Source of the DNA: an uncultured Collinsella sp.
GTDB taxonomy: Bacteria; Actinomycetota; Coriobacteriia; Coriobacteriales; Coriobacteriaceae
NCBI GenBank assembly: GCA_963560155.1
Contig: CAUWMY010000004.1
Coordinates: forward strand, 205-64,204
Direction of reading: 5' to 3'
Length of the DNA stretch: 64,000 bases
Of this stretch, positions 4,567 to 49,779 are shown piece by piece (the stretch's first letter is position 1; each line of letters begins with the position of its first letter). The position numbers and the translations under genes are program-made. The notes under the pieces were generated by a model. That model was given only the letters and a program-made list of their open reading frames with translations. It did no database searches and was not told where the DNA came from.

Positions 4567-6261
4567 CTACGACAGCAGCTTGCGGCCATCCTCCTCGATG
4601 GCGGCGATGAGCGCATCCGCGGCAGCGGCATCCTCGCCCTTGGCGAAGATGTAGAGCTTGATCTTGGGCTCGGTGCCGGAGGGGCGCACGATGGCCTTGT
4701 TGCCGCCCTCGAGGTCGAACTCGATGACGTCGGCCTTGGGCAGGCCGTTTACGCACGTGGCGTAATCGACCACGGCCTCAACCTTGGCACCGGCAATCTC
4801 GGCAGGGGCCTCGGCGCGCAGGTCGGCCATGATGCCGGCCATCTTGGCGGCGCCGTCGGCGCCGGGATAGCTCAGCGAGACGGTCTTGTTGTGATAGTAG
4901 CCGTACTTCTCATACAGCGCGCGCATGGCCTGAACTAGGTTCTTGCCCTGCAGCTTGTAGTACTGGGCCATCTGGCAGATGAGCATGGAGGCATTGACGG
5001 CGTCCTTGTCGCGCACGTGGTCGCCGGACAGATAACCGTAGCTCTCCTCGAAGCCGAAGATGAAGCGGTCGACCTCGCCGGCGTCGGACAGGCCGGTGAT
5101 GATGTCGCCGATGTACTTGAAGCCGGTGAGGCAGCGGCGCAGCTCGAAGCCGTACTCCTCGGCGAGAGCGTCGACCATGGCGGAGGACACGATGGTGGTG
5201 ACGGCGACCTTGCTGGACAGATCCTCGCCGCGCTCGGCGCGCATCTTGCAGATGTAGTCGAGCAGCAGAACGCCCATCTCGTTACCGGTCAGCAGCGTGT
5301 AATCGTCGCCGTCGGCGCAGGCAACGCCCACGCGGTCGGCATCCGGGTCGGTCGCGAGCAGCAGGTCGGGCTTGACCTCTTGGCACAGGTCGATGCCCTT
5401 CTGCATGGCCTCGCGAATCTCGGGGTTGGGGTACGGGCAGGTCGGGAAGTCGCCGTCCGGGTCCTTCTGCTCGGGGACCACGGTGATGTCGGTCACGCCC
5501 ACCTTGTTGAGGACGGTGGTGACCGGGATCAGGCCGGTACCGTTGAGCGGCGTGTAGACGAGCTTGAGCGGAGCGTTGGCGATCTGCTCAGGCGTGAGGT
5601 TGTTCACCGACTTATCGGCCACGGCGTCGTAGTAGGCGTCGAGCACCTCATCGCCGATCCACTTGACCAGGCCCTTCTCAACGGCCTCGTCGAAGTCCAT
5701 GGTCTTGACGTCGTGGAACGGATCGCACACGTTCATGGCGGCGGAGATGGCGTCGGCGGCCTCACTGGTGATCTGGCAACCGTCGGGGCCATAGGCCTTG
5801 TAACCGTTATAGGCGGCCGGATTGTGGCTCGCGGTCATGCAGATGCCGCCGGAGCACTTGAGGTAGCGCGTGGCCCAGGAGAGCGTGGGCACCGGGGAGA
5901 TCTTGGGGTAGACGTAGGAAGTCACGCCGTTGGCCGCGAGGATGGAGGCGGTGGTCTTCACGAACAGCTCGCCGTTGTTGCGGCTGTCGCGCGCGATTGC
6001 GACCGTGGGATTCTCGAAGTTCTTCACCAGGTAATCGGCGAAGCCCTGCGTAGCGCGGCCGACGGTGTAGATGTTCATGCGGTTGGTGCCGGCGCCGAGC
6101 GTGCCGCGCAGGCCGGCGGTGCCGAACGCGAGCTCCTGGAAGAACGCGTCGGTGATCGCCTCCTCGTCGCCCGCCTCCTTCATGGCCTTGAGCTCCGCAA
6201 GGAGCTCCTCATCTTTCACATTCTCGATCCAAACGGAGAGAAGCTCGTGCACATCTGCCAT
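4567..6261 (-). CDS. pgm: Phosphoglucomutase/phosphomannomutase (alpha-D-phosphohexomutase)
   Basis: FGTAGLRG, TASHNP (phosphoserine), DPDADR (metal), GFEES, RPSGTEPKIK. Confidence 0.93.
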   Translation of the reverse strand: MADVHELLSVWIENVKDEELLAELKAMKEAGDEEAITDAFFQELAFGTAGLRGTLGAGTNRMNIYTVGRATQGFADYLVKNFENPTVAIARDSRNNGELFVKTTASILAANGVTSYVYPKISPVPTLSWATRYLKCSGGICMTASHNPAAYNGYKAYGPDGCQITSEAADAISAAMNVCDPFHDVKTMDFDEAVEKGLVKWIGDEVLDAYYDAVADKSVNNLTPEQIANAPLKLVYTPLNGTGLIPVTTVLNKVGVTDITVVPEQKDPDGDFPTCPYPNPEIREAMQKGIDLCQEVKPDLLLATDPDADRVGVACADGDDYTLLTGNEMGVLLLDYICKMRAERGEDLSSKVAVTTIVSSAMVDALAEEYGFELRRCLTGFKYIGDIITGLSDAGEVDRFIFGFEESYGYLSGDHVRDKDAVNASMLICQMAQYYKLQGKNLVQAMRALYEKYGYYHNKTVSLSYPGADGAAKMAGIMADLRAEAPAEIAGAKVEAVVDYATCVNGLPKADVIEFDLEGGNKAIVRPSGTEPKIKLYIFAKGEDAAAADALIAAIEEDGRKLLS

Positions 6262-6401
6262 GGTGAAACCCTTCCCGATGTTGGTTACGGTGCGGGAGCG
6301 CCGTCAGTATGCGAGCGTCCCGCACCTGCATAATACGCCCTCGAGCGGCTTCGTCGACCAAATTCCCGTCTCAGTCCGGGATTATTCGGCGAGGGGTCAG
6401 A

Positions 6402-6524
6402 AAGTCCCAATCGGGGGCAGGCACCAATTGCAACATTTCGCCTACCGATCCGCCGGCGTCAAGCACCGCCAGCGGCCCGACGCATGTACATGGGCACAAT
6501 TTGTGCCTGTCCCCAATTGCGCAA
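6402..6524. repeat. Degenerate inverted doublet of REP-like palindromes (copies 4 and 5: 6402-6437 + and 6490-6524 -)
   Basis: AATCGGGGGCAGGCACCAATTG on +; AATTGGGGACAGGCACAAATTG on -. Confidence 0.7.
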
Positions 6525-6597
6525 CCGCACCTGCCGCAACTGGTGCTACCCTGTACCCGTACGCTGGTCCATAAGTCCGCGGAAAGGAAACCGAATC

Positions 6598-7464
6598 ATG
6601 ACCAAGCTTTATCAGCGCGAAGGCGCGTACATCCCGCGTGTCGCGGCCGTCCACGACATGTGCGGCTACGGCAAATGCTCCCTCGGCGTGGCGATCCCCG
6701 TCCTCAGCGCAGCCGGCGTGGATGTCTGCCCCGTCCCCACGGCCCTCTTCAGCGCCCACACCAAATTCCCCGTCTTCCACATGCACGACACCACCTGCAT
6801 GCTCGAGGCCTATCTCGACGCTTGGCGCGAGGAGAATGTCGATCTTGACGGCGTGTATTCCGGGTTCCTCGGCTCGGCCGAACAGGTCGCCGTCATCCAG
6901 CGCCTCTATCGCGAATACCCGGGCGCCCTTCGCATCGTCGACCCCGTCATGGGCGACGGCGGCGTGAAGTACCCCACCTACACCGACGAGCTGTGCGAGG
7001 CCATGGCGGCCCTCGTCGACGGCGCCGACATTCTCACCCCCAACCTCACCGAGGCATCCATCCTCACCGGCATCCCCTACGAGGGCCAGGACGTCACGGT
7101 CGAGTTCGTGCAGCGCAACGCCGACGCGCTGCTCGCCATGGGCGCGAAGACCGTCGTCATCAAGGGCATCGTGCATGGTGACGAGCCAGTCATCCGCAAC
7201 TACATCGCCAGCACCGCCGATGAGGGCAAGGTCGAGGAGGTCTCGAGCGAGCTGCTCCCCTACATGCTGCACGGCACTGGCGACCTGTTCGCCAGCGCCC
7301 TCACCGCCGCGATTTACACCGGCCGCACCACGCGCGAAGCCGTCGAGTTCGCCGGCGAGCTCGTGCGCGACGCCATGCGCATCACTCGCGAACAGCCCGA
7401 CTTCGAGATGCGCGGCGTCTCCTTCGAGCCCACGCTCGGCAAGGTGGCCGCATTGCTGGCGTAG
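6598..7464 (+). CDS. pdxK: Pyridoxal/pyridoxamine kinase (ribokinase family)
   Basis: GYGKCSL, SAHT, GVYSGFLGS, VDPVMGD, TPNLTEA, GTGDLF; start moved to ATG 6598 (RBS AAAGGAA). Confidence 0.88.
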   Translation: MTKLYQREGAYIPRVAAVHDMCGYGKCSLGVAIPVLSAAGVDVCPVPTALFSAHTKFPVFHMHDTTCMLEAYLDAWREENVDLDGVYSGFLGSAEQVAVIQRLYREYPGALRIVDPVMGDGGVKYPTYTDELCEAMAALVDGADILTPNLTEASILTGIPYEGQDVTVEFVQRNADALLAMGAKTVVIKGIVHGDEPVIRNYIASTADEGKVEEVSSELLPYMLHGTGDLFASALTAAIYTGRTTREAVEFAGELVRDAMRITREQPDFEMRGVSFEPTLGKVAALLA

Positions 7465-15374: not shown

Positions 15375-15464
15375 TGTTGATAACTCACTGCCTTGAACTG
15401 GGGGCGGAGCGGTTATCAACGTTTTCCACAATATGGACGCCTCGTGAGCTGTCGGTTATCCACA
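15375..15464. promoter_or_regulatory. DnaA-box cluster upstream of dnaB
   Basis: TGTTGATAA 15375-15383, TTATCAACG 15413-15421, TTTTCCACA 15422-15430, perfect TTATCCACA 15456-15464. Confidence 0.75.
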
Positions 15465-16663: not shown

Positions 16664-17143
16664 TTAGAACGGGATGTCCTCATCGTAGACGTCGACCGCA
16701 GGGGGGACCGGAGCCGCCATGGGCGCCGGAGCCTGCTGCGGAGCGGGCGCGGGGGCGTAGCCGCCCTGCTGGCCGTAGGACGGGGCGGGGGCATAGCCGC
16801 CTGCCTCACCCTGCTGCCCGCGGGACATGAACTCGATCTCATCGACGATGACCTCGAGCTTGCTGCGGCGCTGGCCGTCACGCTCCCAGGAGCTGTAACG
16901 GAGCTTGCCCTCGATAGCGACCTTCGACCCCTTCGAGAGATAGCGGCTCACGGCCTCCGCACGGGTGCCGAACATCGTGCAGTCCACGAAGTTCGGGTAG
17001 TCCTCCCACTCGCCCGTCTGAGGGTTGCGGCGGCGGTCGTTGACCGCCACGCCGAAGCTCAGGACCTGCGTGCCGCTCGCAGTGGCGCGCAGCTCGGGAT
17101 CGCGGGTGAGGTTACCGGAAATGTTGACTCGATTGATGCTCAT
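16664..17143 (-). CDS. ssb: Single-stranded DNA-binding protein
   Basis: INRVNISGNLTRDPELR OB fold; DEDIPF tail. Confidence 0.98.
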   Translation of the reverse strand: MSINRVNISGNLTRDPELRATASGTQVLSFGVAVNDRRRNPQTGEWEDYPNFVDCTMFGTRAEAVSRYLSKGSKVAIEGKLRYSSWERDGQRRSKLEVIVDEIEFMSRGQQGEAGGYAPAPSYGQQGGYAPAPAPQQAPAPMAAPVPPAVDVYDEDIPF

Positions 17144-37967: not shown

Positions 37968-38126
37968 GTCGCCACCTTTCACCGTTTCCCGCGCGCTACC
38001 TGCGACGCGAGGTGTCTATTTCACGCAATAACCGCGCACTTCGGCATGAAGCGCGCCGCAATATCCTATTGTATAGGGTAACTATGCACCTGGGGGCCAA
38101 GCTCCCCACCATCCGAAAGGCGACAG

Positions 38127-39173
38127 ATGGAACGCACCAACCGTTCGCGCGATATTCGTCAATTCGACCTCGATGACCTCAAGGAACTCGTTAAAGAACT
38201 CGGACAGCCCGCTTTCCGCGCAAAGCAGCTGTACGAGTGGGTTCATGAGAAGAACGTCTGTTCGTTTGACGAGATGACCAATCTCCCCGCAGCCCTGCGC
38301 CAGTCCCTCAACGAGACATTCTCATTCAAGGTCCCGACCGAGCTGGTCAAACAGGTCTCCAAGGACGGATCGCGCAAGTATTTGCTTGAGTTCTCCGACG
38401 GCGTCTCGGTCGAGACCGTCGGCATGCCAAACCGTAACAAGCTTGCCGTCTGTATCTCATCGCAAGCTGGTTGCGCCATGGGCTGCGCATTTTGCGCCAC
38501 CGGTCTCGCGGGCCTCTCCCGCTCCCTCACGGCCCAGGAGATGGTGGACCAGGTGCTCCATGTCTCGCGCGACTTCGGTGAACGCGTCACGAGTGTCGTC
38601 TTCATGGGTCAGGGAGAGCCCTTCGCCAACTTCGACAACACCGTCGAGGCTCTCCGCATGCTGAACGATCCCGCGGGACTCGCCATCGGCGCTCGCCACC
38701 TCACAGTCTCCACCTGCGGCGTTATCCCCGGCATCCGCCGCTTCGCCGAGCTCCCCGAGCAGTTCACCCTCGCCATCTCCCTGCACTCCGCGATCCAGAG
38801 CACGCGCAACCAGCTCATGCCCGGGGTCAAGAAGTTCACGCTGCTTCGCCTCCATGAGGCTATCCAGGAGTATGTCGAGAAAACCGGTCGGCGCCCGACT
38901 TACGAATTCGCGATGATCGAGGGTATCAACGACACGACCCCCGAGATGCAGGCGCTTGTCGACTTCTGCGCGGGAACGCTCTGCCACGTCAACCTCATAC
39001 AGCTGAACGATATCCCCGACAGCCCCTTCCGCCCATCGCCAATCGAAAAGGTCGAGACCCTTCAGCGTCGTCTCACCATGCATGGCGTGGAGACCACGAT
39101 CCGCAACTCTCGTGGCGGCGATATCGACGCCGCCTGCGGCCAGCTCAAGCAGCGTCGCTTCCGCGCTCGCTAG
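38127..39173 (+). CDS. rlmN: 23S rRNA (A2503) / tRNA radical-SAM methyltransferase
   Basis: CISSQAGCAMGCAFC, VVFMGQGEP, ISLH, AACGQL. Confidence 0.96.
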   Translation: MERTNRSRDIRQFDLDDLKELVKELGQPAFRAKQLYEWVHEKNVCSFDEMTNLPAALRQSLNETFSFKVPTELVKQVSKDGSRKYLLEFSDGVSVETVGMPNRNKLAVCISSQAGCAMGCAFCATGLAGLSRSLTAQEMVDQVLHVSRDFGERVTSVVFMGQGEPFANFDNTVEALRMLNDPAGLAIGARHLTVSTCGVIPGIRRFAELPEQFTLAISLHSAIQSTRNQLMPGVKKFTLLRLHEAIQEYVEKTGRRPTYEFAMIEGINDTTPEMQALVDFCAGTLCHVNLIQLNDIPDSPFRPSPIEKVETLQRRLTMHGVETTIRNSRGGDIDAACGQLKQRRFRAR

Positions 39174-39187
39174 GGGAGTGGTTGCAC

Positions 39188-39203
39188 CGTTTCACATGAA
39201 ACA
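39188..39203. promoter_or_regulatory. parS site (CGTTTCACATGAAACA)
   Basis: Two mismatches to the TGTTTCACGTGAAACA consensus. Confidence 0.8.
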
Positions 39204-39253
39204 GAATTGGCTCAAATGCATTCCAGCCCTCACCTGGCGAAACGCTGCCATTG

Positions 39254-39282
39254 AAAAGCCCGTCCATCGGACGGGCTTTTTT
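39254..39282. terminator. Bidirectional intrinsic terminator after rlmN
   Basis: AAAAGCCCGTCC-ATC-GGACGGGCTTTTTT. Confidence 0.85.
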
Positions 39283-39437
39283 CGGTTCAATCATCCATTT
39301 GAATCACAGCGCCAACTCGACCCTGCCTCCACCGCACATGCGGACCTCCTGTCCGAACCGGTGATCCGGTCCAACTTTTCGTCCGCAGCCCCGACGCATT
39401 TCCGAGGTGGAGATGTAGAACCATTCTGTTAGGTACC

Positions 39438-39698
39438 TTAGTATCCGACCTGCTCCCATTGCTTTTCAACCCACGACTGATTGATTTGCGGATTGCGAGT
39501 CACCTTTGCGGTCCGCAATGCCACCTCCTCGCTCACCATATCCATCGTGTCGCGTGAAACCGGATTAAGCTGATCCAGTTTGCCCTTAATAGATACTCCA
39601 AGCTCTGTCTTGCTGACAATGTGCACCCCAGCAGCAAATCCGACTGCGACCGTGCATGCCGTCAATATCATCCGATAGGACTTTTTCATGAAAACCAT
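39438..39698 (-). CDS. Small hypothetical membrane protein directly after parB
   Basis: ATG abuts the parB TAG; basic N-terminus then hydrophobic helix (MILTACTVAVGFAAGVHIV). Confidence 0.7.
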   Translation of the reverse strand: MVFMKKSYRMILTACTVAVGFAAGVHIVSKTELGVSIKGKLDQLNPVSRDTMDMVSEEVALRTAKVTRNPQINQSWVEKQWEQVGY

Positions 39699-40574
39699 CT
39701 ACTCTTGATCAGCATCAACCATGGAGGCAAGGATGCGCTGCAAGTCATCCTCATCCTTGAACTCAATTTCAATCTTATTCTTACCGCGAGTAGAACGAAC
39801 CTTCACATTCGTATTGAAGACCTGACGAAGGACGCGGGCAGCTTTTTTATAGGATTGCGGGGTCACCGGACGTGGAGGCCGAGGCGCATCTCCGACTGAA
39901 AACAATGGAGCAAGGTTCTCAGTCGCTCGAACCGACAAACCTTCTGTGACCACCTTCTCAGCCAGCTTGATTCGAGCCTCCTCAAATGGAACAGCCAGAA
40001 TCGCACGAGCATGGCCGGCGGTAAGTTTTCCCTCATACATGAGCTGCTGAACAGGCTCCGGTAGATCGAGAAGCCTCAATGAGTTTGTTATCGCAGAGCG
40101 AGACTTCGAAACCGCTTTCGACAGAGCCTCCTGCGTCATCCCACTTGCCTTGATAAGCTGACGATATCCTTTTGCTTCCTCAATTGGATTAAGGTCAGAG
40201 CGTTGAAGATTTTCGATAAGTGCAATCTCGAGCATCTTCTGATCATCAACGTCCTTGATTATCACAGGGACTTTCTCAAGACCAGCAATCTTTGACGCCT
40301 GATATCGACGCTCACCGGCAATGATCTCGTACTTCGCTCCATTTTTTCTAACAAGCAGTGGCTGAAGAACGCCATTCTCTCGAATAGATTCACTCAGCTC
40401 CTCAAGCTCGGACTCATTGAAGTGCGTACGTGGCTGATTCGGATTGGGGAAGATATCCTCGATAGACAATTGAACCTCAGACGCTGCCTGAGTAAACCCC
40501 GTCTCCGACTGCGCCTCCCCCATGAGGGAACCGAGACCACGACCGAGAGCCGGCTTCTTTTTCGCGCTAGGCAC
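39699..40574 (-). CDS. parB: Chromosome partitioning protein ParB (Spo0J)
   Basis: LGRGLGSL, PNPNQPR, IIAGERRYQA, ENLQRSDLNPIEEA, HTH, GHARA. Confidence 0.97.
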   Translation of the reverse strand: MPSAKKKPALGRGLGSLMGEAQSETGFTQAASEVQLSIEDIFPNPNQPRTHFNESELEELSESIRENGVLQPLLVRKNGAKYEIIAGERRYQASKIAGLEKVPVIIKDVDDQKMLEIALIENLQRSDLNPIEEAKGYRQLIKASGMTQEALSKAVSKSRSAITNSLRLLDLPEPVQQLMYEGKLTAGHARAILAVPFEEARIKLAEKVVTEGLSVRATENLAPLFSVGDAPRPPRPVTPQSYKKAARVLRQVFNTNVKVRSTRGKNKIEIEFKDEDDLQRILASMVDADQE

Positions 40575-41367
40575 GACGAATCACTTCCTTAGCGAGATCC
40601 ATATACGCTCGGGCGCCCTTGTTGTTGGGTGCATACTCGATAACCGGCATGCCATAAGACGGCGCCTCAGAAACTTTCACTGATCGCGGAATGCAGGTTT
40701 TAAAGGCGACATCACCGAAGTAATTCTGCACCTCCTCGACAACCTGATTCGAGAGCGAAGTGCGAGAATCGAACATCGTCATGAGCACGCCATATGTCTC
40801 AAGATCCTTATTGATACGGCCTTTGACCATTCGCATCGACTCAAGCAGCTTTGTAACGCCTTCCAGTGCGTAATACTCACACTGGATCGGGATGAGCACA
40901 CTGTCTGCCGCTGCCAAAGCATTGATGGTAAGAAGACCAAGGGATGGCGGGCAATCAATAAAGATGAAATCGAACTCATCTTTGACCGGCTCAAGGAGAT
41001 CCTTAAGACGCGTCTCACGTGCCATAGCCGAAACTAATTCGATTTCCGCACCCGCCAGCTGAATCGTTGCGGGGATAATATAGACTCGATCGCTCACAGT
41101 GTCATGAATGAGCTCCTCAGCAGGAACATCGTGCAACAACGCATCATATATGCACTGCGTAAGCCCCTCTTTATCAACTCCAATACCACTTGTACTGTTA
41201 CCCTGGGGATCGAAGTCGACAATCAGTACTTTTCTTCCCTGCTTACCTAGTGCCGAAGCAAGATTGACTGTCGTGGTGGACTTACCGACGCCACCCTTCT
41301 GGTTGATGATTGCAATGGTGTGAAGCGGTTTCGTGCTCTTAGAACGCTTTACATCGCGAAATCCCAC
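40567..41367 (-). CDS. parA: Chromosome partitioning ATPase ParA (Soj)
   Basis: NQKGGVGKST, DFDPQGN, DCPPSLG, EAPSYG. Confidence 0.97.
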   Translation of the reverse strand: MGFRDVKRSKSTKPLHTIAIINQKGGVGKSTTTVNLASALGKQGRKVLIVDFDPQGNSTSGIGVDKEGLTQCIYDALLHDVPAEELIHDTVSDRVYIIPATIQLAGAEIELVSAMARETRLKDLLEPVKDEFDFIFIDCPPSLGLLTINALAAADSVLIPIQCEYYALEGVTKLLESMRMVKGRINKDLETYGVLMTMFDSRTSLSNQVVEEVQNYFGDVAFKTCIPRSVKVSEAPSYGMPVIEYAPNNKGARAYMDLAKEVIRRA

Positions 41368-41420
41368 ATTACCTCCTGTTGTCTCGTTATTGTTGTGCTT
41401 TTCAGGTCTCTTGTAGGTGA

Positions 41421-41470
41421 TGTTTCACGTGAAACCTCTTTATACAAACCATTATGTTTCACGTGAAACT
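41421..41470. promoter_or_regulatory. Two parS sites (41421-41436 TGTTTCACGTGAAACC; 41455-41470 TGTTTCACGTGAAACT)
   Basis: One mismatch each to consensus; directly upstream of parA. Confidence 0.92.
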
Positions 41471-41949
41471 AGTATTCAAGCATCAGTTTCTTAATCATGC
41501 CATGTACTGCTTAGTCAATCTTGCGATGAAACTCAAGTTAGGTAATATCGCAATCCTAATACGCAAACCAGAATCTTAGAGTTTGCTCTGAATTATGCAT
41601 GGAAGATTGATGCATTAAAATAGACATTTAGCAACTTCCAACAATCATAATCAGAACTGCAGTCATTAACATCTGAGGTCGTACTCATTCTGAAGGACAT
41701 ATACAGTCCAAACAATCAACTTACCTGAAAACACAAGTTATACTGTATATGCAATATCAGTGTACAAGAACGATCATTTGAGGTGTTTGAGCAGGGATAG
41801 TTACGGAAATAGCTGATAGAAGTAAACAGTTTATGGATACTGCACCGTTGAAGCCCTTGACATTAATGATGAACGAACGTCAAATTCATCAATGGGTTCT
41901 GAATGCAAGCCAGAATCAGCCTTCAATCAAATACAACCCTCTATAAGAC

Positions 41950-41983
41950 AACAACCCATGTTTCACATGAAACATGGGTTGTT
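41950..41983. promoter_or_regulatory. parS site (41959-41974 TGTTTCACATGAAACA) within a 16-bp-arm inverted repeat after rsmG
   Basis: AACAACCCATGTTTCA-CA-TGAAACATGGGTTGTT. Confidence 0.85.
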
Positions 41984-42008
41984 AGAAAAGCGATAATTGA
42001 AACCAAGA

Positions 42009-42788
42009 TTAAGATACAAGCGGCTGCTTCTTGGCGAGGCCAACAGCACGGGGCAGCTTGATACGCGGCTCGTTTACTTTCTGATACAGAAAAACAGAGC
42101 GATGTCCTAAGTCGCGAGGAAGATCGAACTCATCACAGCCAATAAGTTCCAATCCACAGATATCTGCAGTCTTGGAAGCGAGCTTCAATTCTTCATCACT
42201 AGGATTTGCTTTAGCAACAACCAGATAGCCATCTTCCTCAAGGAAAGGCGTTCCGTACTCGATAATCATAGCCATCTGTCCAACAGCGCGAGCAAAGACA
42301 GTATCAAACTTGCCACGCATGTGCTGGGCATACGACTCACATCGGTCATGAACACCTTGGACATCCTCAATGCCGAGTTGACGAATAAAAGCGTTGACCG
42401 CATCGATCTTCTTGCCAACTGAATCAAGGAGAACACCAGAGCAGCCAGTGTATAGCGCAAAGGGGATTCCAGGGAAACCGGCCCCTGTACCCATGTCGAG
42501 AAAGTTCTCGGGCTCAATAGGGAGATCGCGGTACAAGGCAAGTGAATCAACGATGTGGAGGACCAAAGCGTCATGGATGTCCTTGATACGAGTAAGGTTC
42601 ATGAACTCATTGACCTGATTGACATACAGCAAGTGTTTAACACACTGCTCGGCTGTCGTCTGATCAAGTTCGATATCGATTTGATCGGCCAGCTCGATAA
42701 CCTCGGAAACCAAAGAGGAAAACTCTTCATCCTTAACATCGATGGGTCGAAGTTCTATAACTCGACTAGATTCAAGAGACATATTCAT
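42009..42788 (-). CDS. rsmG: 16S rRNA (G527-N7) methyltransferase
   Basis: NLTRI, HIVDSL, DMGTGAGFPGIP, LDSVGKK, FARAV. Confidence 0.95.
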   Translation of the reverse strand: MNMSLESSRVIELRPIDVKDEEFSSLVSEVIELADQIDIELDQTTAEQCVKHLLYVNQVNEFMNLTRIKDIHDALVLHIVDSLALYRDLPIEPENFLDMGTGAGFPGIPFALYTGCSGVLLDSVGKKIDAVNAFIRQLGIEDVQGVHDRCESYAQHMRGKFDTVFARAVGQMAMIIEYGTPFLEEDGYLVVAKANPSDEELKLASKTADICGLELIGCDEFDLPRDLGHRSVFLYQKVNEPRIKLPRAVGLAKKQPLVS

Positions 42789-42832
42789 GCATCCATTCTG
42801 TGACTGAAATCAATGTAGCAAGGAGTTGCGTC

Positions 42833-42857
42833 AAAAAAGGGGCGCAGAGCGCCCCTT
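42833..42857 (-). terminator. Intrinsic terminator after jag
   Basis: AAGGGGCGC-loop-GCGCCCCTT followed by T run on the minus strand. Confidence 0.8.
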
Positions 42858-42879
42858 GTATCAGCAGTATGTAGCCACC

Positions 42880-43464
42880 CTAGCGAACGGTGATCACAAC
42901 GCGGCGCTCTGGGTCGGTGCCCTCAGAATGCGTATCGATACGATCATCCTCGCGCAGCGTGATGTGGACAAGACGACGCTCATAGGCGGACATGGGAGGC
43001 AGGTTAACCGTGCGGCTCTGGGCAACAGCTCGGGAGGCAGCGGAGTGAGCCATGCTGACCACCTTATCGTGGCGACGACTCTTATAGCCCTCGACATCAA
43101 TGGAAACGGGGTAACGGAACCCAAGCTTGCGGCTCACCAACAGGGAGACCATGGTCTGCAGGGACTCGAGCGTACGACCATGACGACCAATCAGCACGGC
43201 AAGGTCAGGCGCGGTGATGTCGAGAATCAGCTCACCTTCGTCGCCCTCGTACTCATCGATAGGAGAGGTATCAGCATCAAAGAAGCCGAGGAGGTCGCGA
43301 ACAATGGAGATGGCCACATCGGCAATCGTATCGAGGTCCTCGTCTGAGAGCTCCTCGCCAGCCTTGTAGCGGCGGGCAATCTCGGGGTACTCGCCGGTGA
43401 TCTCCTCAACGGGCTCCTCAACCGGCATATCTTCAGTAAGCTCTTCAGTCATGTCCATCTCCAT
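42880..43464 (-). CDS. jag: Jag/EloR (KhpB) RNA-binding protein, KH and R3H domains
   Basis: LIGRHGRTLESLQ (KH), MSAYERRLVH (R3H). Confidence 0.92.
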   Translation of the reverse strand: MEMDMTEELTEDMPVEEPVEEITGEYPEIARRYKAGEELSDEDLDTIADVAISIVRDLLGFFDADTSPIDEYEGDEGELILDITAPDLAVLIGRHGRTLESLQTMVSLLVSRKLGFRYPVSIDVEGYKSRRHDKVVSMAHSAASRAVAQSRTVNLPPMSAYERRLVHITLREDDRIDTHSEGTDPERRVVITVR

Positions 43465-43501
43465 AATTAGGTACCTTAGTAGTTGTTATACCAGGTAAAT
43501 A

Positions 43502-44281
43502 CTAGCGCTTCTTGTGAGGGCGCTTCTTATGCTCGCGACGGACAACGTCGACCTCGATCGGAGCGTTGATCATGCGAGCTTCTTCCTCAGCCTTGGCCTT
43601 GTCGATAACCTTCTGGGTCACAAAGATCTGCTGAATGACCTGCCAGGCGGAAGAAACGTCGTAGTACAGCAGAACGCCGGCGGGCATACCCCAGCCCATG
43701 ACGAGCATCATGACGGTCATGACGACCATCATCATCTTGGTGCTCTGCACCTGGACGCCGGTCTGGTTGCGGGTCATGTACATCTGCGGGATGAAGGTGA
43801 GCACACCGAACAGGATAAGGGCGATCAGGTACGGCAGGGCGGCGCCAAAACCGCCGGCGATGGCCTGAGCGGGCGAAGTGACCAGATTGGGCAGGATGTT
43901 GAAGAACGAGAAGCCCTTATCCGCCGCATCCGGGAAGTAATGGCCGAGGTCGCGCAGGAGGTTGAACAAGGCGACCAGGATGGGCATCTGGATGAGCAGA
44001 GGCAGGCAGCCACCGAAGGGGTTGAACTTGTTCTCAGAGTAGAACTTCTGCAGCTCCTCGGCCTGACGCTGCGGATCGTCAGCGTAACGCTCCTGGATAT
44101 CGAGAAGCTTGGGCTGCAGGACCTGCATGCGGGCGGTTGACTTGATGGACTTGAGCATCATCGGGGTCAGCAGCAGGCGAATGATCACCACCAGGATGAT
44201 GATCGACAGGCCCCAGTCGCCTGCGAAGCGCTGAATGAGCTCAAGCGCCTGGAAGAGAATCTGAACAATCCAGTCCCACAT
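43502..44281 (-). CDS. yidC: Membrane protein insertase YidC/Oxa1 family
   Basis: WGLSIIILVVIIRLLL, LQPK, GGCLPLLIQMPIL, GVLLYY. Confidence 0.95.
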   Translation of the reverse strand: MWDWIVQILFQALELIQRFAGDWGLSIIILVVIIRLLLTPMMLKSIKSTARMQVLQPKLLDIQERYADDPQRQAEELQKFYSENKFNPFGGCLPLLIQMPILVALFNLLRDLGHYFPDAADKGFSFFNILPNLVTSPAQAIAGGFGAALPYLIALILFGVLTFIPQMYMTRNQTGVQVQSTKMMMVVMTVMMLVMGWGMPAGVLLYYDVSSAWQVIQQIFVTQKVIDKAKAEEEARMINAPIEVDVVRREHKKRPHKKR

Positions 44282-44885: not shown

Positions 44886-45029
44886 TTAGTTGTCGCTCAC
44901 CGTGAGACGCTTGCGGCCCTTGGCGCGGCGACGGGCGAGCACGGCGCGGCCGGCCTTGGTGGCCATACGGGCGCGGAAACCGTGAGTCTTGGCGCGCTTG
45001 CGCTTGTTCGGCTGGTAGGTACGCTTCAT
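44886..45029 (-). CDS. rpmH: 50S ribosomal protein L34 (not in the ORF track)
   Basis: Manual translation [47 protein letters not shown]. Confidence 0.98.
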
Positions 45030-45094
45030 GGTAAACATCCTCCTGGTGCGTTTTGACTACTCGACTAATCGAAAAAATACGCGTGAGCTAGGAG

Positions 45095-45124
45095 ATTGTA
45101 GGGAATACCGTGCTCGAATGTCAA
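45095..45124 (-). promoter_or_regulatory. rpmH promoter TTGACA-N18-TACAAT
   Basis: -35 at 45119-45124, -10 at 45095-45100. Confidence 0.75.
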
Positions 45125-45209
45125 TCTCAGAACCATGAAATGCGCATAGTCTACTAAGGCACCGGATGACCATGTCCGTCGCGGCGAGATGCAAACAAGT
45201 TTCTTTCAG

Positions 45210-45310
45210 AGTTTTTCAGCCACTTATCCACAGCTTGTTAAGTACGTGTTGATAACTTTTCCGCTCTTTCCAACACTTTTCAACCGACTTGGAAAACTTG
45301 TTGAAAGTTT
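45210..45310. other. oriC part 1: DnaA-box cluster between rpmH and the gene upstream of dnaA
   Basis: TTATCCACA 45224-45232, TGTTGATAA 45247-45255, weaker boxes at 45277 and 45299; AT-rich. Confidence 0.8.
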
Positions 45311-45370
45311 TGAACGCGAAGGGTGTGAGCTGGTATCCTAGGCTCACGACAATCGTGGAAAGAATGCAGC

Positions 45371-46651
45371 ATGTCAGAAGATTTCTACCCCTTTGTGGAT
45401 TCGGGCGACCCGGCTCCAGACAACACGCACCTCACGGGAGCCGCCCCAGCCGCACCTGAGGGCAATCCGGTGGAAAACGAGCCCGTGCAGGCCTCGTACA
45501 CGATCCGCATATCGGTGTATGACGACATGCTGTCCACCCCGCGCGTGATCGTGGTGGAGCAAAGCGACGTGAGGACGTACCTGGAAGACGTCACGAACAC
45601 GGTCTACCGCACCATGAAAGAACAGGGTGGAAAACTTTCACTCATGATCATCCGAGAGCTCGTGGAGAACTTCATCCACGCCCAGTTCACCGAACCGGTC
45701 ATCTCCATCTTGGACAACGGCAACACCATCCGCTTCGCCGACCAGGGCCCCGGTATTCACGACAAAGAGCGCGCATTCGAGTTCGGCGTCACAAGCGCCG
45801 ACCGAGAGAAGAAGCGCTATATCCGAGGCACGGGCGCAGGCCTGCCCATGGTCCAGCAATACGTCGAGAACGCTGGCGGCGCGATAGCCGTAGAGGACAA
45901 CCTGGGCGCGGGAACGGTCGTCACCGTGAGCGTCGACGCCAAGCGCGCGGCGGAGCTCGAGCACGCCGTTTCACGTGGAGCGGCCGTGCGCAGCGGTTGT
46001 GCACACGAGGCGGAACCCGCAGCGGCACCCATGCAAAATCCATCGGATCCCTGGGGCGCGGCGAGGTACCAGGCTGGAGCCTACCCGGCTCAAGCCGGAT
46101 ATCCGCAACAGCCCTACGGAGCCGGGACGTATCCCGCCCAGATGCCCTACGGCATGATGTCCGGCCAGATGCAGGGGGCGGCCCAGGCCCAACCCGGCGG
46201 TTTCCCGGGGGCCCAGGTCCCAGCGGGGACGGCACCCGGCGCGTTCCCACAGCAGCCCGCCTACTGCCCGGGCTATCCGCAGGGATACCCCATGCAAGGC
46301 TTTCCACAGCAGCAGGGGTTCCCTCAACCGGGATTCCCGCCTGCGGGAATCCCGGGCATGGGTTATGAGCAGATGGGCATGCCCGGACAGGGCTACGCGC
46401 AGGCCGCGCCCGCGCCCGTACGGCAGGGTCCGTACGTAAGCGAGCGCGGCGCGGCGGCGCTGCTGTTCATCTACCAGAACGGCAAAGGCGGGCCAACCGA
46501 CCTCACGCGCGCGCTCGGGCGCTCGGACGCCACGTGGTCGCGTGAACTCGACGCGCTGGCGAGCACGGGCCTCGTGCATAAGCCCCGCCAGAAGTATGTG
46601 CTCACCGACATGGGCAAGGCCTGGGTCGAGCAGAGCGCGGGATCGCAGTAG
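45371..46651 (+). CDS. Uncharacterised GHKL/HATPase_c-fold ATPase with Q/P/G/Y-rich linker and C-terminal winged helix
   Basis: RELVENFIHA (N box), DQGPGI (G1), GTGAGL (G2), GTVVTV; tail LSERGAAALL...PTDLTRALGRSDATWSRELDALASTGLV. Confidence 0.8.
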   Translation: MSEDFYPFVDSGDPAPDNTHLTGAAPAAPEGNPVENEPVQASYTIRISVYDDMLSTPRVIVVEQSDVRTYLEDVTNTVYRTMKEQGGKLSLMIIRELVENFIHAQFTEPVISILDNGNTIRFADQGPGIHDKERAFEFGVTSADREKKRYIRGTGAGLPMVQQYVENAGGAIAVEDNLGAGTVVTVSVDAKRAAELEHAVSRGAAVRSGCAHEAEPAAAPMQNPSDPWGAARYQAGAYPAQAGYPQQPYGAGTYPAQMPYGMMSGQMQGAAQAQPGGFPGAQVPAGTAPGAFPQQPAYCPGYPQGYPMQGFPQQQGFPQPGFPPAGIPGMGYEQMGMPGQGYAQAAPAPVRQGPYVSERGAAALLFIYQNGKGGPTDLTRALGRSDATWSRELDALASTGLVHKPRQKYVLTDMGKAWVEQSAGSQ

Positions 46652-46714
46652 CGCCCAACGCACACCGCAGGATTCAGACGCGAGCAACCGCGACACGAGA
46701 AGGAATCGTGAGAC

Positions 46715-48457
46715 ATGGATAACGAAGCGCGCATCCTCTTGGACGACGTCATAGCGTTTTGCCGCCGCGATGGCCGCGAGACGCGCCTCATCAACATGCT
46801 CGAGCAGTGCGGGGCAACGGGATTTGACGACGAGTCCCTGACCATCCAGGTCCCCAGCAGATTTGCCTATAACTACCTCGTCAAACAGCGGGAGCTGATC
46901 GAGCGCTATCTCGAGGAGATCTCGTTCATGCCCATGGCCCTCAACGTCGTGGTGGCCGAGGGCGGGGCGCCGAGCGAAACGCAGGCGCCCGTCGCCGCGC
47001 CGGCGGTGCCGGCGGTCGAGGGCCAACCGCCGAGGGCCGCCGAGGTGCCGGCGAGTTTTGCCGAGGGCCCCGCAAGCCAGATTGCGCCCGTAGAACCCGC
47101 CGCGGCCAGCGACCTCGCGGCCTCCTCACCTGCCAAGCCCGAACCCAGCTCCAAGTCCGGCGTCACGGTGCGCAACACCGTCTCGCCCGAGGCCTTCCGC
47201 AAGATGATGGACGAGATGCGCAGCCAAGACCCCACCGGTAAGCGTCAAAGCACCGGCGCGATGCAGCAGCCGGCGGCACAGGCACCCATGGCCGCGACGG
47301 CGCCCGCCGCGGCGGCGGCATCGGCCCCGGAACCCGACGTCGCGGTGCTGGACATCAACGCCAAGTACACGTTCGCGAGCTTTGTCGCGGGCGACGAGAA
47401 CCGCCATGCCTTCAACAGCGCGATGCGGTTCGCCGCCTACGCCGAGGAGCCGCAGCAGTGCCCGAGCCTGTTCATCTACGGCAACTCGGGCCTGGGCAAG
47501 ACGCACCTGCTCTTCGCCATCCGCAACTACCTCGCCAAGGAAAAGCCCTACATCCGCGTGAAATACGCGAACTCCCAGGCCTACCTCGACGATTACATGA
47601 ACGAGCTGGGCGCGCAGCGCGGTCCGGGCAGCCTCATCATGCGCGAGTACCGCGACGCCGACATCCTCATCATCGACGACGTGCAGAATATCGTGGGCAA
47701 GCAGGCATCCGTCGAGTTCTTTTTCCAGCTCGTGGACAGCTTCATCCGCGAGGGCAAGAAGATCGCGCTGGCATCCGACCGCGCGCCCAAGGACCTCGCC
47801 ATGGACGAGCGCCTCACCAGCCGCTTCAGCAGCGGCATGCTCTGCCTGGTGTCCGAGCCGGGCTTCGAGATGAAGTACGTCATCCTCAAGCGCTATTACG
47901 AGAGCATCATCCAGCAGGACGTGGACCTCTCCTCCATGAACGTGGACACCTCGCTGCTCCAGGCCCTGCCCTCCTCCGAAGGTAAGCTCACCGACGAGCA
48001 CCTGCGTCATATGGCCGAGATCTCGGGCAACAACATCCGCTCGCTCGAGAGCTTCTGCGAGCGCTGCGCGAACCTCTCCTCGGAGCGCGAGGCCGCGGGC
48101 GTCGAGCTCACCGCCGAGGACATCGACCGCGTGGCCAAGATCTATTTCAACACCGCGCACAAGATCATCCACGTGGACACCGTGCAGCGCGTGGTAGAGG
48201 AGTTCTACCATGTGAGTCACGAGGAGCTCGTGGGCAAGCGCCGCACGGCCAACATCGCCTTCGCACGCCACGTGGCGGTCTACCTCGCCAACAACCTCTG
48301 CGAAATGACCACCCCGGCCATCGGCGCCGAGTTCGGCGGGCGCGACCACTCCACGGTTCTCAACTCCCTCAAGGTGGTTGAAAACAAGATGCGCGAGGAC
48401 CGCCGCATCGTGGAGGACATCCAGAACCTCAAGAACACCATCCTCTTGAAGTCGTGA
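46715..48457 (+). CDS. dnaA: Chromosomal replication initiator protein
   Basis: YTFASFVAG, PSLFIYGNSGLGKTHL, IDDVQ, RLTSRF, GGRDHSTV; long A/P-rich domain II. Confidence 0.97.
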   Translation: MDNEARILLDDVIAFCRRDGRETRLINMLEQCGATGFDDESLTIQVPSRFAYNYLVKQRELIERYLEEISFMPMALNVVVAEGGAPSETQAPVAAPAVPAVEGQPPRAAEVPASFAEGPASQIAPVEPAAASDLAASSPAKPEPSSKSGVTVRNTVSPEAFRKMMDEMRSQDPTGKRQSTGAMQQPAAQAPMAATAPAAAAASAPEPDVAVLDINAKYTFASFVAGDENRHAFNSAMRFAAYAEEPQQCPSLFIYGNSGLGKTHLLFAIRNYLAKEKPYIRVKYANSQAYLDDYMNELGAQRGPGSLIMREYRDADILIIDDVQNIVGKQASVEFFFQLVDSFIREGKKIALASDRAPKDLAMDERLTSRFSSGMLCLVSEPGFEMKYVILKRYYESIIQQDVDLSSMNVDTSLLQALPSSEGKLTDEHLRHMAEISGNNIRSLESFCERCANLSSEREAAGVELTAEDIDRVAKIYFNTAHKIIHVDTVQRVVEEFYHVSHEELVGKRRTANIAFARHVAVYLANNLCEMTTPAIGAEFGGRDHSTVLNSLKVVENKMREDRRIVEDIQNLKNTILLKS

Positions 48458-48660
48458 AAACATGGGTGAAGCCTGTGGAAAACCTGGGTGGAAAACTCAA
48501 AATCCAGTGGAGGGAAAATCGGTGGATATCTCACAGGGGAAAACAAGCGCGTTGTCTACAATTGATTGTTGAAAGAAAAACCGCCCGGCATCTGGGCAAA
48601 CGGGAGTAGTTCACACCATTCACTGCGTTATTACTGTTATTACCTATATTTATTTAAGAG
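48458..48660. other. oriC part 2 (dnaA-dnaN): DnaA boxes, DnaA-trio-like tract and AT-rich unwinding region
   Basis: TGTGGAAAA 48474-48482, GGTGGAAAA 48487-48495, GGTGGATAT 48521-48529; TATTACTGTTATTAC 48629-48643 followed by TATATTTATTTAA. Confidence 0.85.
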
Positions 48661-48675
48661 AGGAATAATAAAGAG

Positions 48676-49779
48676 ATGAAGTTCACGGTCAGCCAGTCGG
48701 CCCTTTCCGATGCCATCGCCGTCGTGATGAAGGGCATTGCGCCCTCGTCCACGCTTCCCATCCTCTCCGGCGTGCTCGTGCGCGCCGCCGACGGGGTCCT
48801 CGAATTCCAGACGTCCAACTACACCATCTCGATCCGCCATCGCATCGCCGCGCGCGTGGACGAGGAGGGCCAGGTCGTCATTCCCTGCAAGATGCTCTCC
48901 AACATCGTGAAGACCCTGCCCGACGCCCCGGTGTCCTTTGAGCTGGCCGAGCGCCAGGTGACCATCGCCTGCGAGCGCTCCACCTTCCGCCTGAACACCC
49001 TGGACGCCGGCGACTTCCCCGAGTTCCCCACGTTCGCGCTCGAGCGCTCCGTCGAGCTGCCCGCCAACATCCTGACCGAGATGGTCAGCCGTGTCTGGCG
49101 CGTCACTTCGACGGACAAGAACCGCCCGGTCCTTAACGGCGTGTTCATGACCGTCGAGAACAACACAATCCGCCTGGTGGCCACCGACTCCTATCGTCTC
49201 GCGGTGTGCGACACCCAGGTCGAGACCTCCTCGCTGGATGGCAGCTTCGAGCTGAACGTCCCAGCCGATGCCTTCAACGATGCCCTCGCCATCACCGGCG
49301 GCCAGGGCTCCATCCTTATTGGATCCACGGATACGCAGGTCGTGTTCGTGGCTGGCAACACCACCTACGTCGCCCGTCGTATCGAGGGCATGTACCCCAA
49401 CTACAAGGCGCTGCTGCCCGCGTCCTGCGCCACCACGGTCAAGATCGATGTGGCCGCCCTGACCTCCGCGCTTAAGCGCGTCTCCACGGTCGCTCAGGCC
49501 AACTCCGCCGTTAAGTTCGACATCTCCGTCGAGACCGGCCAGATGATGCTTTCCGCCATTTCCAATGATCAGGATGCCGCCACGGCCACGGTCGAGGTCG
49601 AGGCCGAGGGCGCCAGCGGCGTCATCGCGTTCAACTACCACTACATCTTCGGCTGCCTGAACGTGCTCTCCCGTGAGAAGGAGATCACGCTCGAGCTGCA
49701 GAGCTACAACCAGGCGGGCGTGTTCAAGTCCTACGACAAGATCAACTACCTCTACCTGGTCATGCCGGTCCGCATCTAG
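48676..49779 (+). CDS. dnaN: DNA polymerase III beta sliding clamp
   Basis: MKFTV, LPILSGVL, VATDSYRLA, YPNY, YLVMPVRI. Confidence 0.97.
   Translation: MKFTVSQSALSDAIAVVMKGIAPSSTLPILSGVLVRAADGVLEFQTSNYTISIRHRIAARVDEEGQVVIPCKMLSNIVKTLPDAPVSFELAERQVTIACERSTFRLNTLDAGDFPEFPTFALERSVELPANILTEMVSRVWRVTSTDKNRPVLNGVFMTVENNTIRLVATDSYRLAVCDTQVETSSLDGSFELNVPADAFNDALAITGGQGSILIGSTDTQVVFVAGNTTYVARRIEGMYPNYKALLPASCATTVKIDVAALTSALKRVSTVAQANSAVKFDISVETGQMMLSAISNDQDAATATVEVEAEGASGVIAFNYHYIFGCLNVLSREKEITLELQSYNQAGVFKSYDKINYLYLVMPVRI

Follow-up and report, generated by a model that had tools for sequence, protein, structure and literature searches.

The described proteins that come structurally nearest to the gene treated here are the class I sensor histidine kinases, such as HK853, CpxA, PhoQ and WalK. 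The gene, called X below, encodes a 426-aa protein in which a GHKL ATP-binding domain, a disordered linker and a winged helix-turn-helix (wHTH) follow each other. It lies directly upstream of dnaA in a stretch of 64,000 nucleotides from an uncultured Collinsella sp. (GCA_963560155.1, contig CAUWMY010000004.1, positions 205 to 64,204 of the forward strand), referred to as the window. X shares with the sensor kinases the CA domain (HATPase_c, PF02518), with its Bergerat fold and N, G1 and G2 boxes, but it has no DHp/HisKA domain with an acceptor His, no sensor or transmembrane (TM) domain and no response regulator in the locus. On the other hand, it adds an RIAVYD...PRV hairpin, a Glu four residues before the Mg-binding Asn and the fusion to the wHTH. 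Having no DHp/His helix, X was ruled out as a sensor histidine kinase.

Only one solved structure aligns over both modules of X in the same order, GHKL-like and then winged helix. This is DIP2311 of Corynebacterium diphtheriae (PDB 3LMM), an uncharacterised protein of the COG2865 type (AlbA_2/HATPase_c_4/wHTH), which was the top Foldseek match of the compact Rubrobacter orthologue of X (E 5.5e-7, 327 columns). However, the two proteins have 13-14% identity, a root-mean-square deviation of about 20 A and a different domain arrangement. X has neither the AlbA_2 (Schlafen-like) N-terminal domain nor a HATPase_c_4 profile match and, lacking both in Pfam, was not accepted as a member of the COG2865 family. 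No linkage of DIP2311 to dnaA is known.

In NifL, a kinase-derived GHKL domain senses ADP/ATP and does not phosphorylate, and the GHKL and DH domains bind and sequester the AAA+ domain of NifA, the stoichiometrically co-expressed partner (PMC12998190). This is the nearest working analogy for X and DnaA, and an analogy only, as NifL has PAS and DH (DHp-like) domains and no wHTH, and NifA is a sigma-54 activator, not DnaA. With PAS and DH domains absent from X by Pfam, membership of a NifL-like family was discarded. CapK is a GHKL kinase with an HTH domain and controls the adjacent operon (PMC13373217). In CapK/CapS and in SpoIIAB/RsbW, a GHKL domain without DHp acts on a protein partner, and the ExxxN-type N box is common to these proteins and X. 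CapK has the order HTH-STAS-GHKL with its substrate CapS always adjacent, whereas X has the order GHKL-linker-wHTH and neither a STAS antagonist or substrate gene nor a sigma factor gene next to it at the locus.

X was also excluded from the RsbW/SpoIIAB family, having no HATPase_c_2 (PF13581) match at E<=1; the genome-wide search with PF13581 found C36:15216-15563 and not X. That hit falls in an open reading frame (ORF) of 256 aa on another contig of the genome (C36:14853-15563, plus strand), in which a STAS domain is joined to a HATPase_c_2 kinase domain of the RsbW type. A stand-alone STAS protein of 117 aa is encoded at C41:8677-8970, and three STAS-domain ORFs exist in the genome altogether. 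The GHL ATPases (GyrB, MutL, Hsp90, MORC) were rejected because one helix and the disordered linker come after the ATP-binding domain of X, and no transducer domain; MutL gave only a weak N-box match (E 1.4e-3). A role in a defence system was ruled out too, the PADLOC match covering the wHTH only (C-terminal HTH of Csa3/CasR, E 1e-4).

The role that we propose for X is like that of known regulators of DnaA or oriC (YabA, SirA, Soj/ParA, DnaD, DiaA/HobA, Hda, SeqA, MtrA, AdpA), some of which are encoded near dnaA or controlled by DnaA boxes. None of the Pfam and NCBIfam models of these regulators matches X, and we know of none with a GHKL fold. Our search found no paper describing the X family in the library covered, in agreement with the initial annotation of this DNA, which had presented it as undescribed.

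The gene X and its place beside dnaA

The genes around X are arranged as follows (positions in the window):

44886..45038, minus strand: rpmH (ribosomal protein L34), the divergent neighbour on the 5' side of X (ORF list)
45371..46651 including the stop codon, plus strand: X, 426 aa, ATG start (ORF list)
46652..46714, plus strand: X-dnaA spacer of 63 bp with the dnaA ribosome-binding site GAAGGAA (sequence reading)
46715..48457, plus strand: dnaA, 580 aa, with a long A/P-rich domain II (Pfam Bac_DnaA E 5e-40, Bac_DnaA_C E 1.5e-23)
48676..49779, plus strand: dnaN (ORF list, locus mapping)

The full gene order is jag, yidC, yidD, rnpA and rpmH on the minus strand, followed by X, dnaA, dnaN and recF on the plus strand. 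As the initial annotation had stated, the 426-aa gene stands between rpmH and dnaA, on the same strand as dnaA and exactly 63 bp from it, and among annotated relatives this gap is 48-84 bp. The rpmH product has 96-100% identity to RpmH of other Collinsella loci. X occurs once in the 1.6-Mb genome, the next best matches being ordinary kinases (E 3e-7). It is a real, single-copy and expressed gene, with which an X-dnaA(-dnaN-recF) unit begins. Gut metagenomes contain its closest relatives, proteins of 97-98% identity, and the named ones include an "ATP-binding protein" of Collinsella intestinalis (84% identity) as well as proteins of C. stercoris DSM 13279 and Enorma. A related-locus search over the genome contigs returned only loci of the Collinsella/Enorma type, which confirms the genus.

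The gene is widespread in the class. Of 301 Coriobacteriia genomes covered by a protein search, about 265 have an X match of about E 1e-22 or better, and those without one are mostly fragmentary assemblies whose congeners have the gene. A profile search of 401 Actinomycetota genomes gave a strong match (E<=1e-18) in about 146; the large-genome Actinomycetes show histidine-kinase background only (about 1e-9). Named carriers outside Coriobacteriia are Rubrobacter xylanophilus (WP_143528520) and Miltoncostaea marina of the class Thermoleophilia (WP_217914303), and further ones are Ca. Solincola tengchongensis and many metagenome-assembled genomes labelled "Actinomycetota bacterium". In their source records the orthologues are called "ATP-binding protein", "histidine kinase", "hypothetical protein", "predicted HTH transcriptional regulator" or "anti-sigma regulatory factor (Ser/Thr protein kinase)". 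A comparison of the profile with 1.84 billion cluster representatives gave 399 clusters at E<=1e-30, 594 at E<=1e-10 and 7,730 at E<=1e-3. These counts indicate a compact family, well apart from ordinary kinases and from a histidine-kinase background that runs to thousands.

For the synteny comparison we fetched 30 loci at the level of Collinsella, 20 from other Coriobacteriia families and 20 from other Actinomycetota families, and mapped X, DnaA, DnaN, RecF, RpmH, RnpA and YidC on them by tblastn. X is directly upstream of dnaA and on the same strand in all 70, and three metagenome contigs of more divergent members have the same arrangement, giving 73 of 73 loci. Homologues are thus not scattered away from dnaA, an outcome that the initial annotation had named as refuting its reading. 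The order rpmH<- ->X->dnaA->dnaN is found across Coriobacteriia, Rubrobacter, Thermoleophilia, Ca. Solincola and unnamed Actinomycetota, with three loci rearranged. In two of them, from two Eggerthellaceae genera (L033 and L036; genomes G054 and G262), X and dnaA have been inverted together and lie between rpmH and dnaN. In the third (L078), X-dnaA-dnaN-recF is preceded by thiamine-transport, TPK and MoeA genes, and the rpmH cluster is missing. Since X is kept with dnaA in all three, it follows dnaA and not rpmH.

X is an ancient resident of the slot before dnaA rather than an insertion peculiar to the Collinsella genome. The idea that it had been inserted between rpmH and dnaA is consequently given up, as the gene occupies this slot across several deep actinobacterial classes.

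Some loci deserve separate mention. Two orthologues (G008:C1:1616874-1617728 and G492:C97:5473-6270) have one in-frame TAA stop each and could be pseudogenes or the product of sequencing errors; G008 is a complete 1.6-Mb genome of the Eggerthellaceae family. The bacterial yidC-rnpA-rpmH/X-dnaA arrangement is also present in assemblies labelled as a Candidatus Bathyarchaeia archaeon (L163, GCA_038850055.1) and as a Bacteroidaceae bacterium (L084), which are probably mis-binned actinobacterial contigs. In the window itself, a marked trough in guanine-plus-cytosine content (0.46-0.57, compared with about 0.65 elsewhere) spans 38000-44000. It lies immediately upstream of the jag-yidC-rnpA-rpmH cluster, on the side near the origin.

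Domains of the X protein

Behind a variable and disordered stretch of residues 1-43 (class-wide alignment and AlphaFold2 model), three parts of the protein were delimited, and their coding segments are:

45500..45991, plus strand: residues 44-207, an N-terminal beta-hairpin and then a histidine-kinase-type ATP-binding (Bergerat) fold (Pfam, motifs, predicted local distance difference test (pLDDT) about 90)
45992..46420, plus strand: residues 208-350, the disordered linker, a short charged helix and then about 120 aa of G/P/Q/A/Y/M/F (pLDDT, composition)
46421..46648, plus strand: residues 351-426, the wHTH (Pfam PF25213, HTH_45 and MarR; pLDDT 94-98)

HATPase_c of Pfam matches residues 93-190 above the family cut-off (E 1.1e-12). 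The N box reads E96-x-x-E99-N100-x-x-H103-A104, the G1 box D124-x-G126-x-G128 and the G2 box G153-x-G155-x-G157-L-P, and all three are invariant in a 16-sequence class-wide alignment. The nucleotide-binding residues, all of them invariant across the family, are E96, E99, N100, H103, A104, D124, G126, P127, G128, R152, G153, G155, G157, L158, P159, G181 and T185, while the conserved N-terminal hairpin (R-I-A-V-Y-D...P-R-V) is family-specific. Across the class the GHKL domain is 45-52% identical, compared with 31-38% for the aligned AAA+/DNA-binding part of DnaA. The ATP-binding site is intact and strongly constrained.

The AlphaFold2 model, built on the 16-sequence alignment, has a pLDDT of about 90-97 for both folded domains. 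It places only the beta-hairpin and one helix on the N-terminal side of the N-box helix, and no DHp hairpin. Pfam gave no HisKA-type match in X at E<=1, and no TM segment was found, the highest 19-residue hydropathy being 1.09. The initial annotation was thus right in reading intact N, G1 and G2 boxes without a His-phosphotransfer helix or TM segment. In NCBIfam, only the CA ends of many histidine kinases were matched, in part and far under every family cut-off. The nearest structures to the ATP-binding domain in Foldseek are the CA domains of HK853, CpxA, PhoQ and WalK, and also BCKDK (E about 2e-6), the identity with the histidine-kinase CA domains being 18-25%. When a profile was compared with PDB sequences, the best match was BCKDK (E 1.3e-4), including the G-x-G-x-GLP G2 box.

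Winged-helix families of Pfam match residues 363-421, the best being PF25213 at E 8e-7, under its cut-off, and the model has a pLDDT of 94-98 over residues 350-425. A C-terminal wHTH had been proposed from the sequence, and these results agree. It resembles the wHTH of Csa3 and of ArsR/MarR proteins (PDB, PADLOC). The compact Rubrobacter orthologue has 266 aa, and its model a mean pLDDT of 85.

The linker of X, of roughly 140 aa, is disordered by the model (pLDDT <50 over residues 209-344). Its core, residues 226-345, contains 24 G, 22 P, 21 Q, 19 A, 11 Y, 8 M, 5 F and 3 charged residues, in line with the almost uncharged Q/G/P/Y/F/M tract described previously; 17 of the 120 residues are aromatic, and the peptides YPAQAGYPQQPY and GFPQQQGFPQPGF are found in the linker. 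No DNA tandem repeats of note occur here, and an origin by slippage was ruled out. We also searched the six-frame ORFs of the 1.6-Mb genome for 60-residue windows that have no more than 3 charged residues together with 5 or more aromatic ones, 6 or more Q/N and 15 or more P+G. The X linker was the sole such window, which excludes a generic linker style of this genome. With looser limits, the only biologically comparable tract was the G/Q/Y/P/A-rich C-terminal tail of SSB, encoded as follows:

16664-17143, minus strand: SSB (Pfam SSB E 1e-31)

The initial annotation had named a linker of unconserved composition as a refuting outcome, and for the family this is what was found. Linker bounds could be set with domain hidden Markov models in 185 of 188 gathered orthologues, the other three having no detectable winged helix. 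Linkers of 85-207 aa, with 3-14% charged residues (<=9% in all but one locus) and 6-12% aromatic ones, are found in Coriobacteriaceae, Eggerthellaceae and part of Atopobiaceae. In small-genome Atopobiaceae, deeper Coriobacteriia, Rubrobacter, Thermoleophilia and the rest of the family the linker has 9-59 aa, and these short linkers have 14-43% charged residues in all but one locus (L073, with 15 residues and 0 charged) and almost no aromatics. The long, low-charge and aromatic linker is, on these comparisons, a derived trait of Coriobacteriales. Being confined to this order, it is not core to the X family.

Within Coriobacteriales, the low charge and the 6-12% of aromatics are retained while the sequence and length of the linker drift. 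The aromatics of X are spaced more evenly than in shuffled sequences (coefficient of variation 0.53 vs 0.87, p about 0.013), and over 147 distinct long linkers, which are related sequences and not independent, the median z is -1.1. In linkers of the C. aerofaciens type, the aromatics are clustered instead (z +3.3). Even spacing in long linkers is therefore suggestive at most. The three prion-like features taken together, a long disordered tract, low charge and evenly spaced aromatics, hold for the X protein of this genome only.

A few genomes encode the GHKL and wHTH halves in frames or ORFs of their own, which overlap or are adjacent. One such case is L041 (genome G090):

6386-6970, minus strand: GHKL ORF
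6178-6501, minus strand: wHTH ORF

The other split orthologues are G480:C13:25448-26196 and G381:C3:8389-9329. Either the covalent tether is not always needed, or these are frameshift or assembly errors.

DnaA boxes and co-expression with dnaA

The 332-bp spacer between rpmH and X and the spacer behind dnaA contain these elements:

45095..45124, minus strand: strong sigma-70-like promoter of rpmH, TTGACA-18-TACAAT (11/12 consensus matches; block kept in 86 Collinsella spacers)
45205..45315, no strand: DnaA-box array of about 110 bp, including several weaker TTTTC(C/A)A-type repeats (scan and footprint)
45224-45232, plus strand: perfect DnaA box TTATCCACA (box scan)
45247-45255, minus strand: one-mismatch DnaA box TTATCAACA (box scan)
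45310-45315 and 45334-45339, plus strand: putative promoter of the X-dnaA operon, -35 TTGAAC and -10 TATCCT with an 18-nt spacer (sequence reading)
48458..48675, no strand: dnaA-dnaN spacer, the second of the candidate origin segments, containing one 1-mismatch DnaA box (48474)

Both of the upstream boxes fall in the rpmH-X spacer, where about 0.03 such boxes would be expected by chance, so that the DnaA-box cluster reported earlier upstream of X holds good (perfect box at 45224, one-mismatch box at 45247). A footprint of 86 distinct Collinsella spacers showed that the rpmH promoter, the DnaA-box-like array and the putative -35/-10 pair are kept. The latter has 8/12 consensus matches, under the scan threshold, and both of its hexamer regions are kept across Collinsella. 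A 6-bp inverted repeat over the putative -10 (GTGAGC...GCTCAC, 45324-45346) was considered as an operator for X and discarded, as its right arm is not conserved in the Collinsella spacers.

The DnaA box (TT[AT]TCCACAG) is also the sole k-mer family enriched in the rpmH-X spacers of distant lineages, being present in 24 of 24, with up to 8 boxes upstream of X when at most one mismatch is allowed. X and dnaA are flanked by two DnaA-box regions; in the bipartite origin of Bacillus it is dnaA alone that sits between two such regions. In the Rubrobacter loci L061-L064, the dnaA-dnaN spacer of about 530 bp holds 17-19 boxes (<=1 mismatch), so that these X-carrying genomes have a very dense and clear oriC downstream of dnaA.

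A scan found no plus-strand terminator and no consensus promoter between X and dnaA. In gut metatranscriptomes, a 97-98% identical strain is present in 4 runs, and in 3 of these the assembled contigs span the X-dnaA junction. They correspond to these positions of the window:

44937-47808: RNA contig X1
45578-46950: RNA contig X3
46422-47409: RNA contig X2

The junction-spanning contigs are weakly consistent with one X-dnaA transcript. Considering the 63-bp gap, the lack of a plus-strand terminator in the scan and the RNA-derived contigs across the junction, X is very probably co-expressed with dnaA, as the initial annotation had expected of an ATP-binding (GHKL) and winged-helix protein at this site. 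And because X stands behind the DnaA-box array, DnaA should control the joint production of X and of itself.

A second DnaA-box cluster lies at 15375-15464 of the window (90 bp, one perfect and two one-mismatch boxes), near ssb/dnaB and about 30 kb from dnaA. This cluster could serve to titrate DnaA or have a regulatory role.

Possible roles of X and their meaning

We suggest, as the reading that we favour while holding it at somewhat under an even chance, that X modulates DnaA or the expression of dnaA in a nucleotide-dependent manner while tethered to DNA, and is produced in step with DnaA. As a switch operated by nucleotides, it would be anchored on the DNA at the origin and the dnaA promoter or close to them. 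Binding of ATP or ADP by the GHKL domain would change the self-association of X or its contact with a partner, the most plausible one being the AAA+ domain of DnaA, and the effect would be that DnaA activity or dnaA transcription is tuned to the energy and growth state, X being made in fixed proportion to DnaA. In Coriobacteriales, the tether would later have been expanded to the long, low-charge and aromatic-rich disordered region, which may raise local concentration or self-association and would not be part of the ancestral mechanism.

Several observations weigh against this proposal. What speaks for a function of X with DnaA is inferred from position throughout, and rpmH, rnpA, yidC and jag, which have no replication role, keep their place by dnaA just as faithfully. 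As rpmH, rnpA and yidC also stay beside dnaA, position alone does not prove a role for X. The X-dnaA inversions could be mere recombination between the two flanking DnaA-box spacers. In a mirror-tree test, with partial correlations of pairwise distances among X, DnaA, DnaN, RecF and YidC over 30 diverse loci, the values were 0.26 for X-DnaA, 0.48 for X-DnaN and 0.21 for X-YidC, so that DnaA is not singled out. Nor did the k-mer enrichment in the rpmH-X spacers of the 24 distant lineages reveal a DNA motif specific to X. These last two results are the reason for keeping the odds of the proposal below one half. The winged helix has a net charge of only about +2 and could serve protein contacts in place of DNA binding. 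The RNA contigs are undirected and come from the 97-98% identical strain; one of them also crosses the divergent rpmH promoter region, and they possibly reflect DNA carry-over or merged transcripts.

Some of these observations feed an explanation that we find somewhat unlikely but take seriously, in which X is an ordinary ATP-responsive transcription factor or housekeeping protein, with targets elsewhere or only autoregulation. Its place by dnaA would be historical, rpmH-dnaA-dnaN being the most rearrangement-resistant part of bacterial chromosomes; this too we regard as rather less than probable. The shared neighbourhood of rpmH, rnpA, yidC and jag in the same loci, the want of an X-specific motif at the origin and of a DnaA-specific mirror-tree signal, and a wHTH like those of generic MarR/ArsR/Csa3 regulators all agree with it. 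However, the shared strand, the short gap and the DnaA-box array upstream tie the expression of X to DnaA control regardless. X stays with dnaA and not with rpmH in each of the three rearrangements, it is single-copy and never away from dnaA in 73 diverse loci, and the conservation of its GHKL domain exceeds that of the aligned part of DnaA, all of which speaks against this explanation. It is improbable, in our estimate, that X is a protein kinase of the anti-sigma/PDK type, acting on Ser/Thr (or His), placed on DNA by the wHTH and phosphorylating either its own linker or a partner (DnaA, a different replication protein or a STAS protein). The N box, E96-x-x-x-N100-x-x-H-A, does fit such an enzyme, a Glu four residues before the Mg-binding Asn being typical of SpoIIAB/RsbW and PDK/BCKDK and not of classical histidine kinases. 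BCKDK is moreover the best sequence match among solved structures, G2 box included, some orthologues are labelled as anti-sigma regulatory factors (Ser/Thr protein kinase) by the Joint Genome Institute, CapK offers the precedent of a GHKL kinase with an HTH controlling its adjacent operon, and STAS-domain ORFs, one of them stand-alone, do exist in the genome. Yet HATPase_c_2 recognises the genuine STAS-HATPase_c_2 protein of this genome and not X, no STAS or other substrate gene is present in the locus and no substrate-docking domain is evident, and structurally the nearest domains are the CA domains of classical histidine kinases.

We give little credence to an origin-organising or segregation factor that would act through an aromatic "sticker" linker, an idea close to the condensate-forming domain that the initial annotation had put forward. 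The disordered linker, unique in the proteome with the SSB tail as nearest tract, its composition, retained across Coriobacteriales despite the drift, and the even spacing of aromatics in X would suit it. On the other side, the long linker is missing from most of the family though synteny is unchanged, and the clustered aromatics of the C. aerofaciens type and the non-independence of related linkers weaken the argument from spacing. X has no ParA/ParB-like feature, and in a few genomes the two domains are in separate ORFs. As a mechanism of the family, a condensate-forming linker is abandoned; the idea covers one order at most.

The modulator of DnaA may also be taken further, to a reading that we consider unlikely as a whole. 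X would then represent an ancient and unrecognised class of replication-initiation regulators in deep-branching Actinomycetota (Coriobacteriia, Rubrobacteria, Thermoleophilia and Geothermincolia-like lineages). It would be a GHKL nucleotide sensor, kinase-dead or kinase-active, translated from a DnaA-controlled mRNA shared with DnaA. Its docking site would be the AAA+ domain of DnaA, by analogy with NifL and NifA, with the winged helix anchoring X at the origin, and ATP/ADP would gate initiation. In gut Coriobacteriales, the prion-like tether would also concentrate X at oriC.

The domains of X are of known kinds; what is new is how they are combined, the fixed position of the gene in the dnaA operon and the role that X may have. 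DnaA control is known in detail in few model bacteria, and Hda, SeqA, DiaA, YabA, SirA and Soj are all lineage-restricted. To our knowledge, no initiation regulator has been described for Coriobacteriia, Rubrobacter or Thermoleophilia; the first of these are abundant human-gut bacteria and include the drug-metabolising Eggerthella. X is a concrete candidate for such a regulator, being near-universal, single-copy, better conserved than the AAA+ region of DnaA itself and placed in the dnaA operon behind DnaA boxes, with an intact ATP site. If X does not act on DnaA, it would show that a strict, phylum-deep synteny with dnaA can be positional inertia. If it does, replication initiation would have its first GHKL-fold protein, and energy state and initiation would be directly linked.

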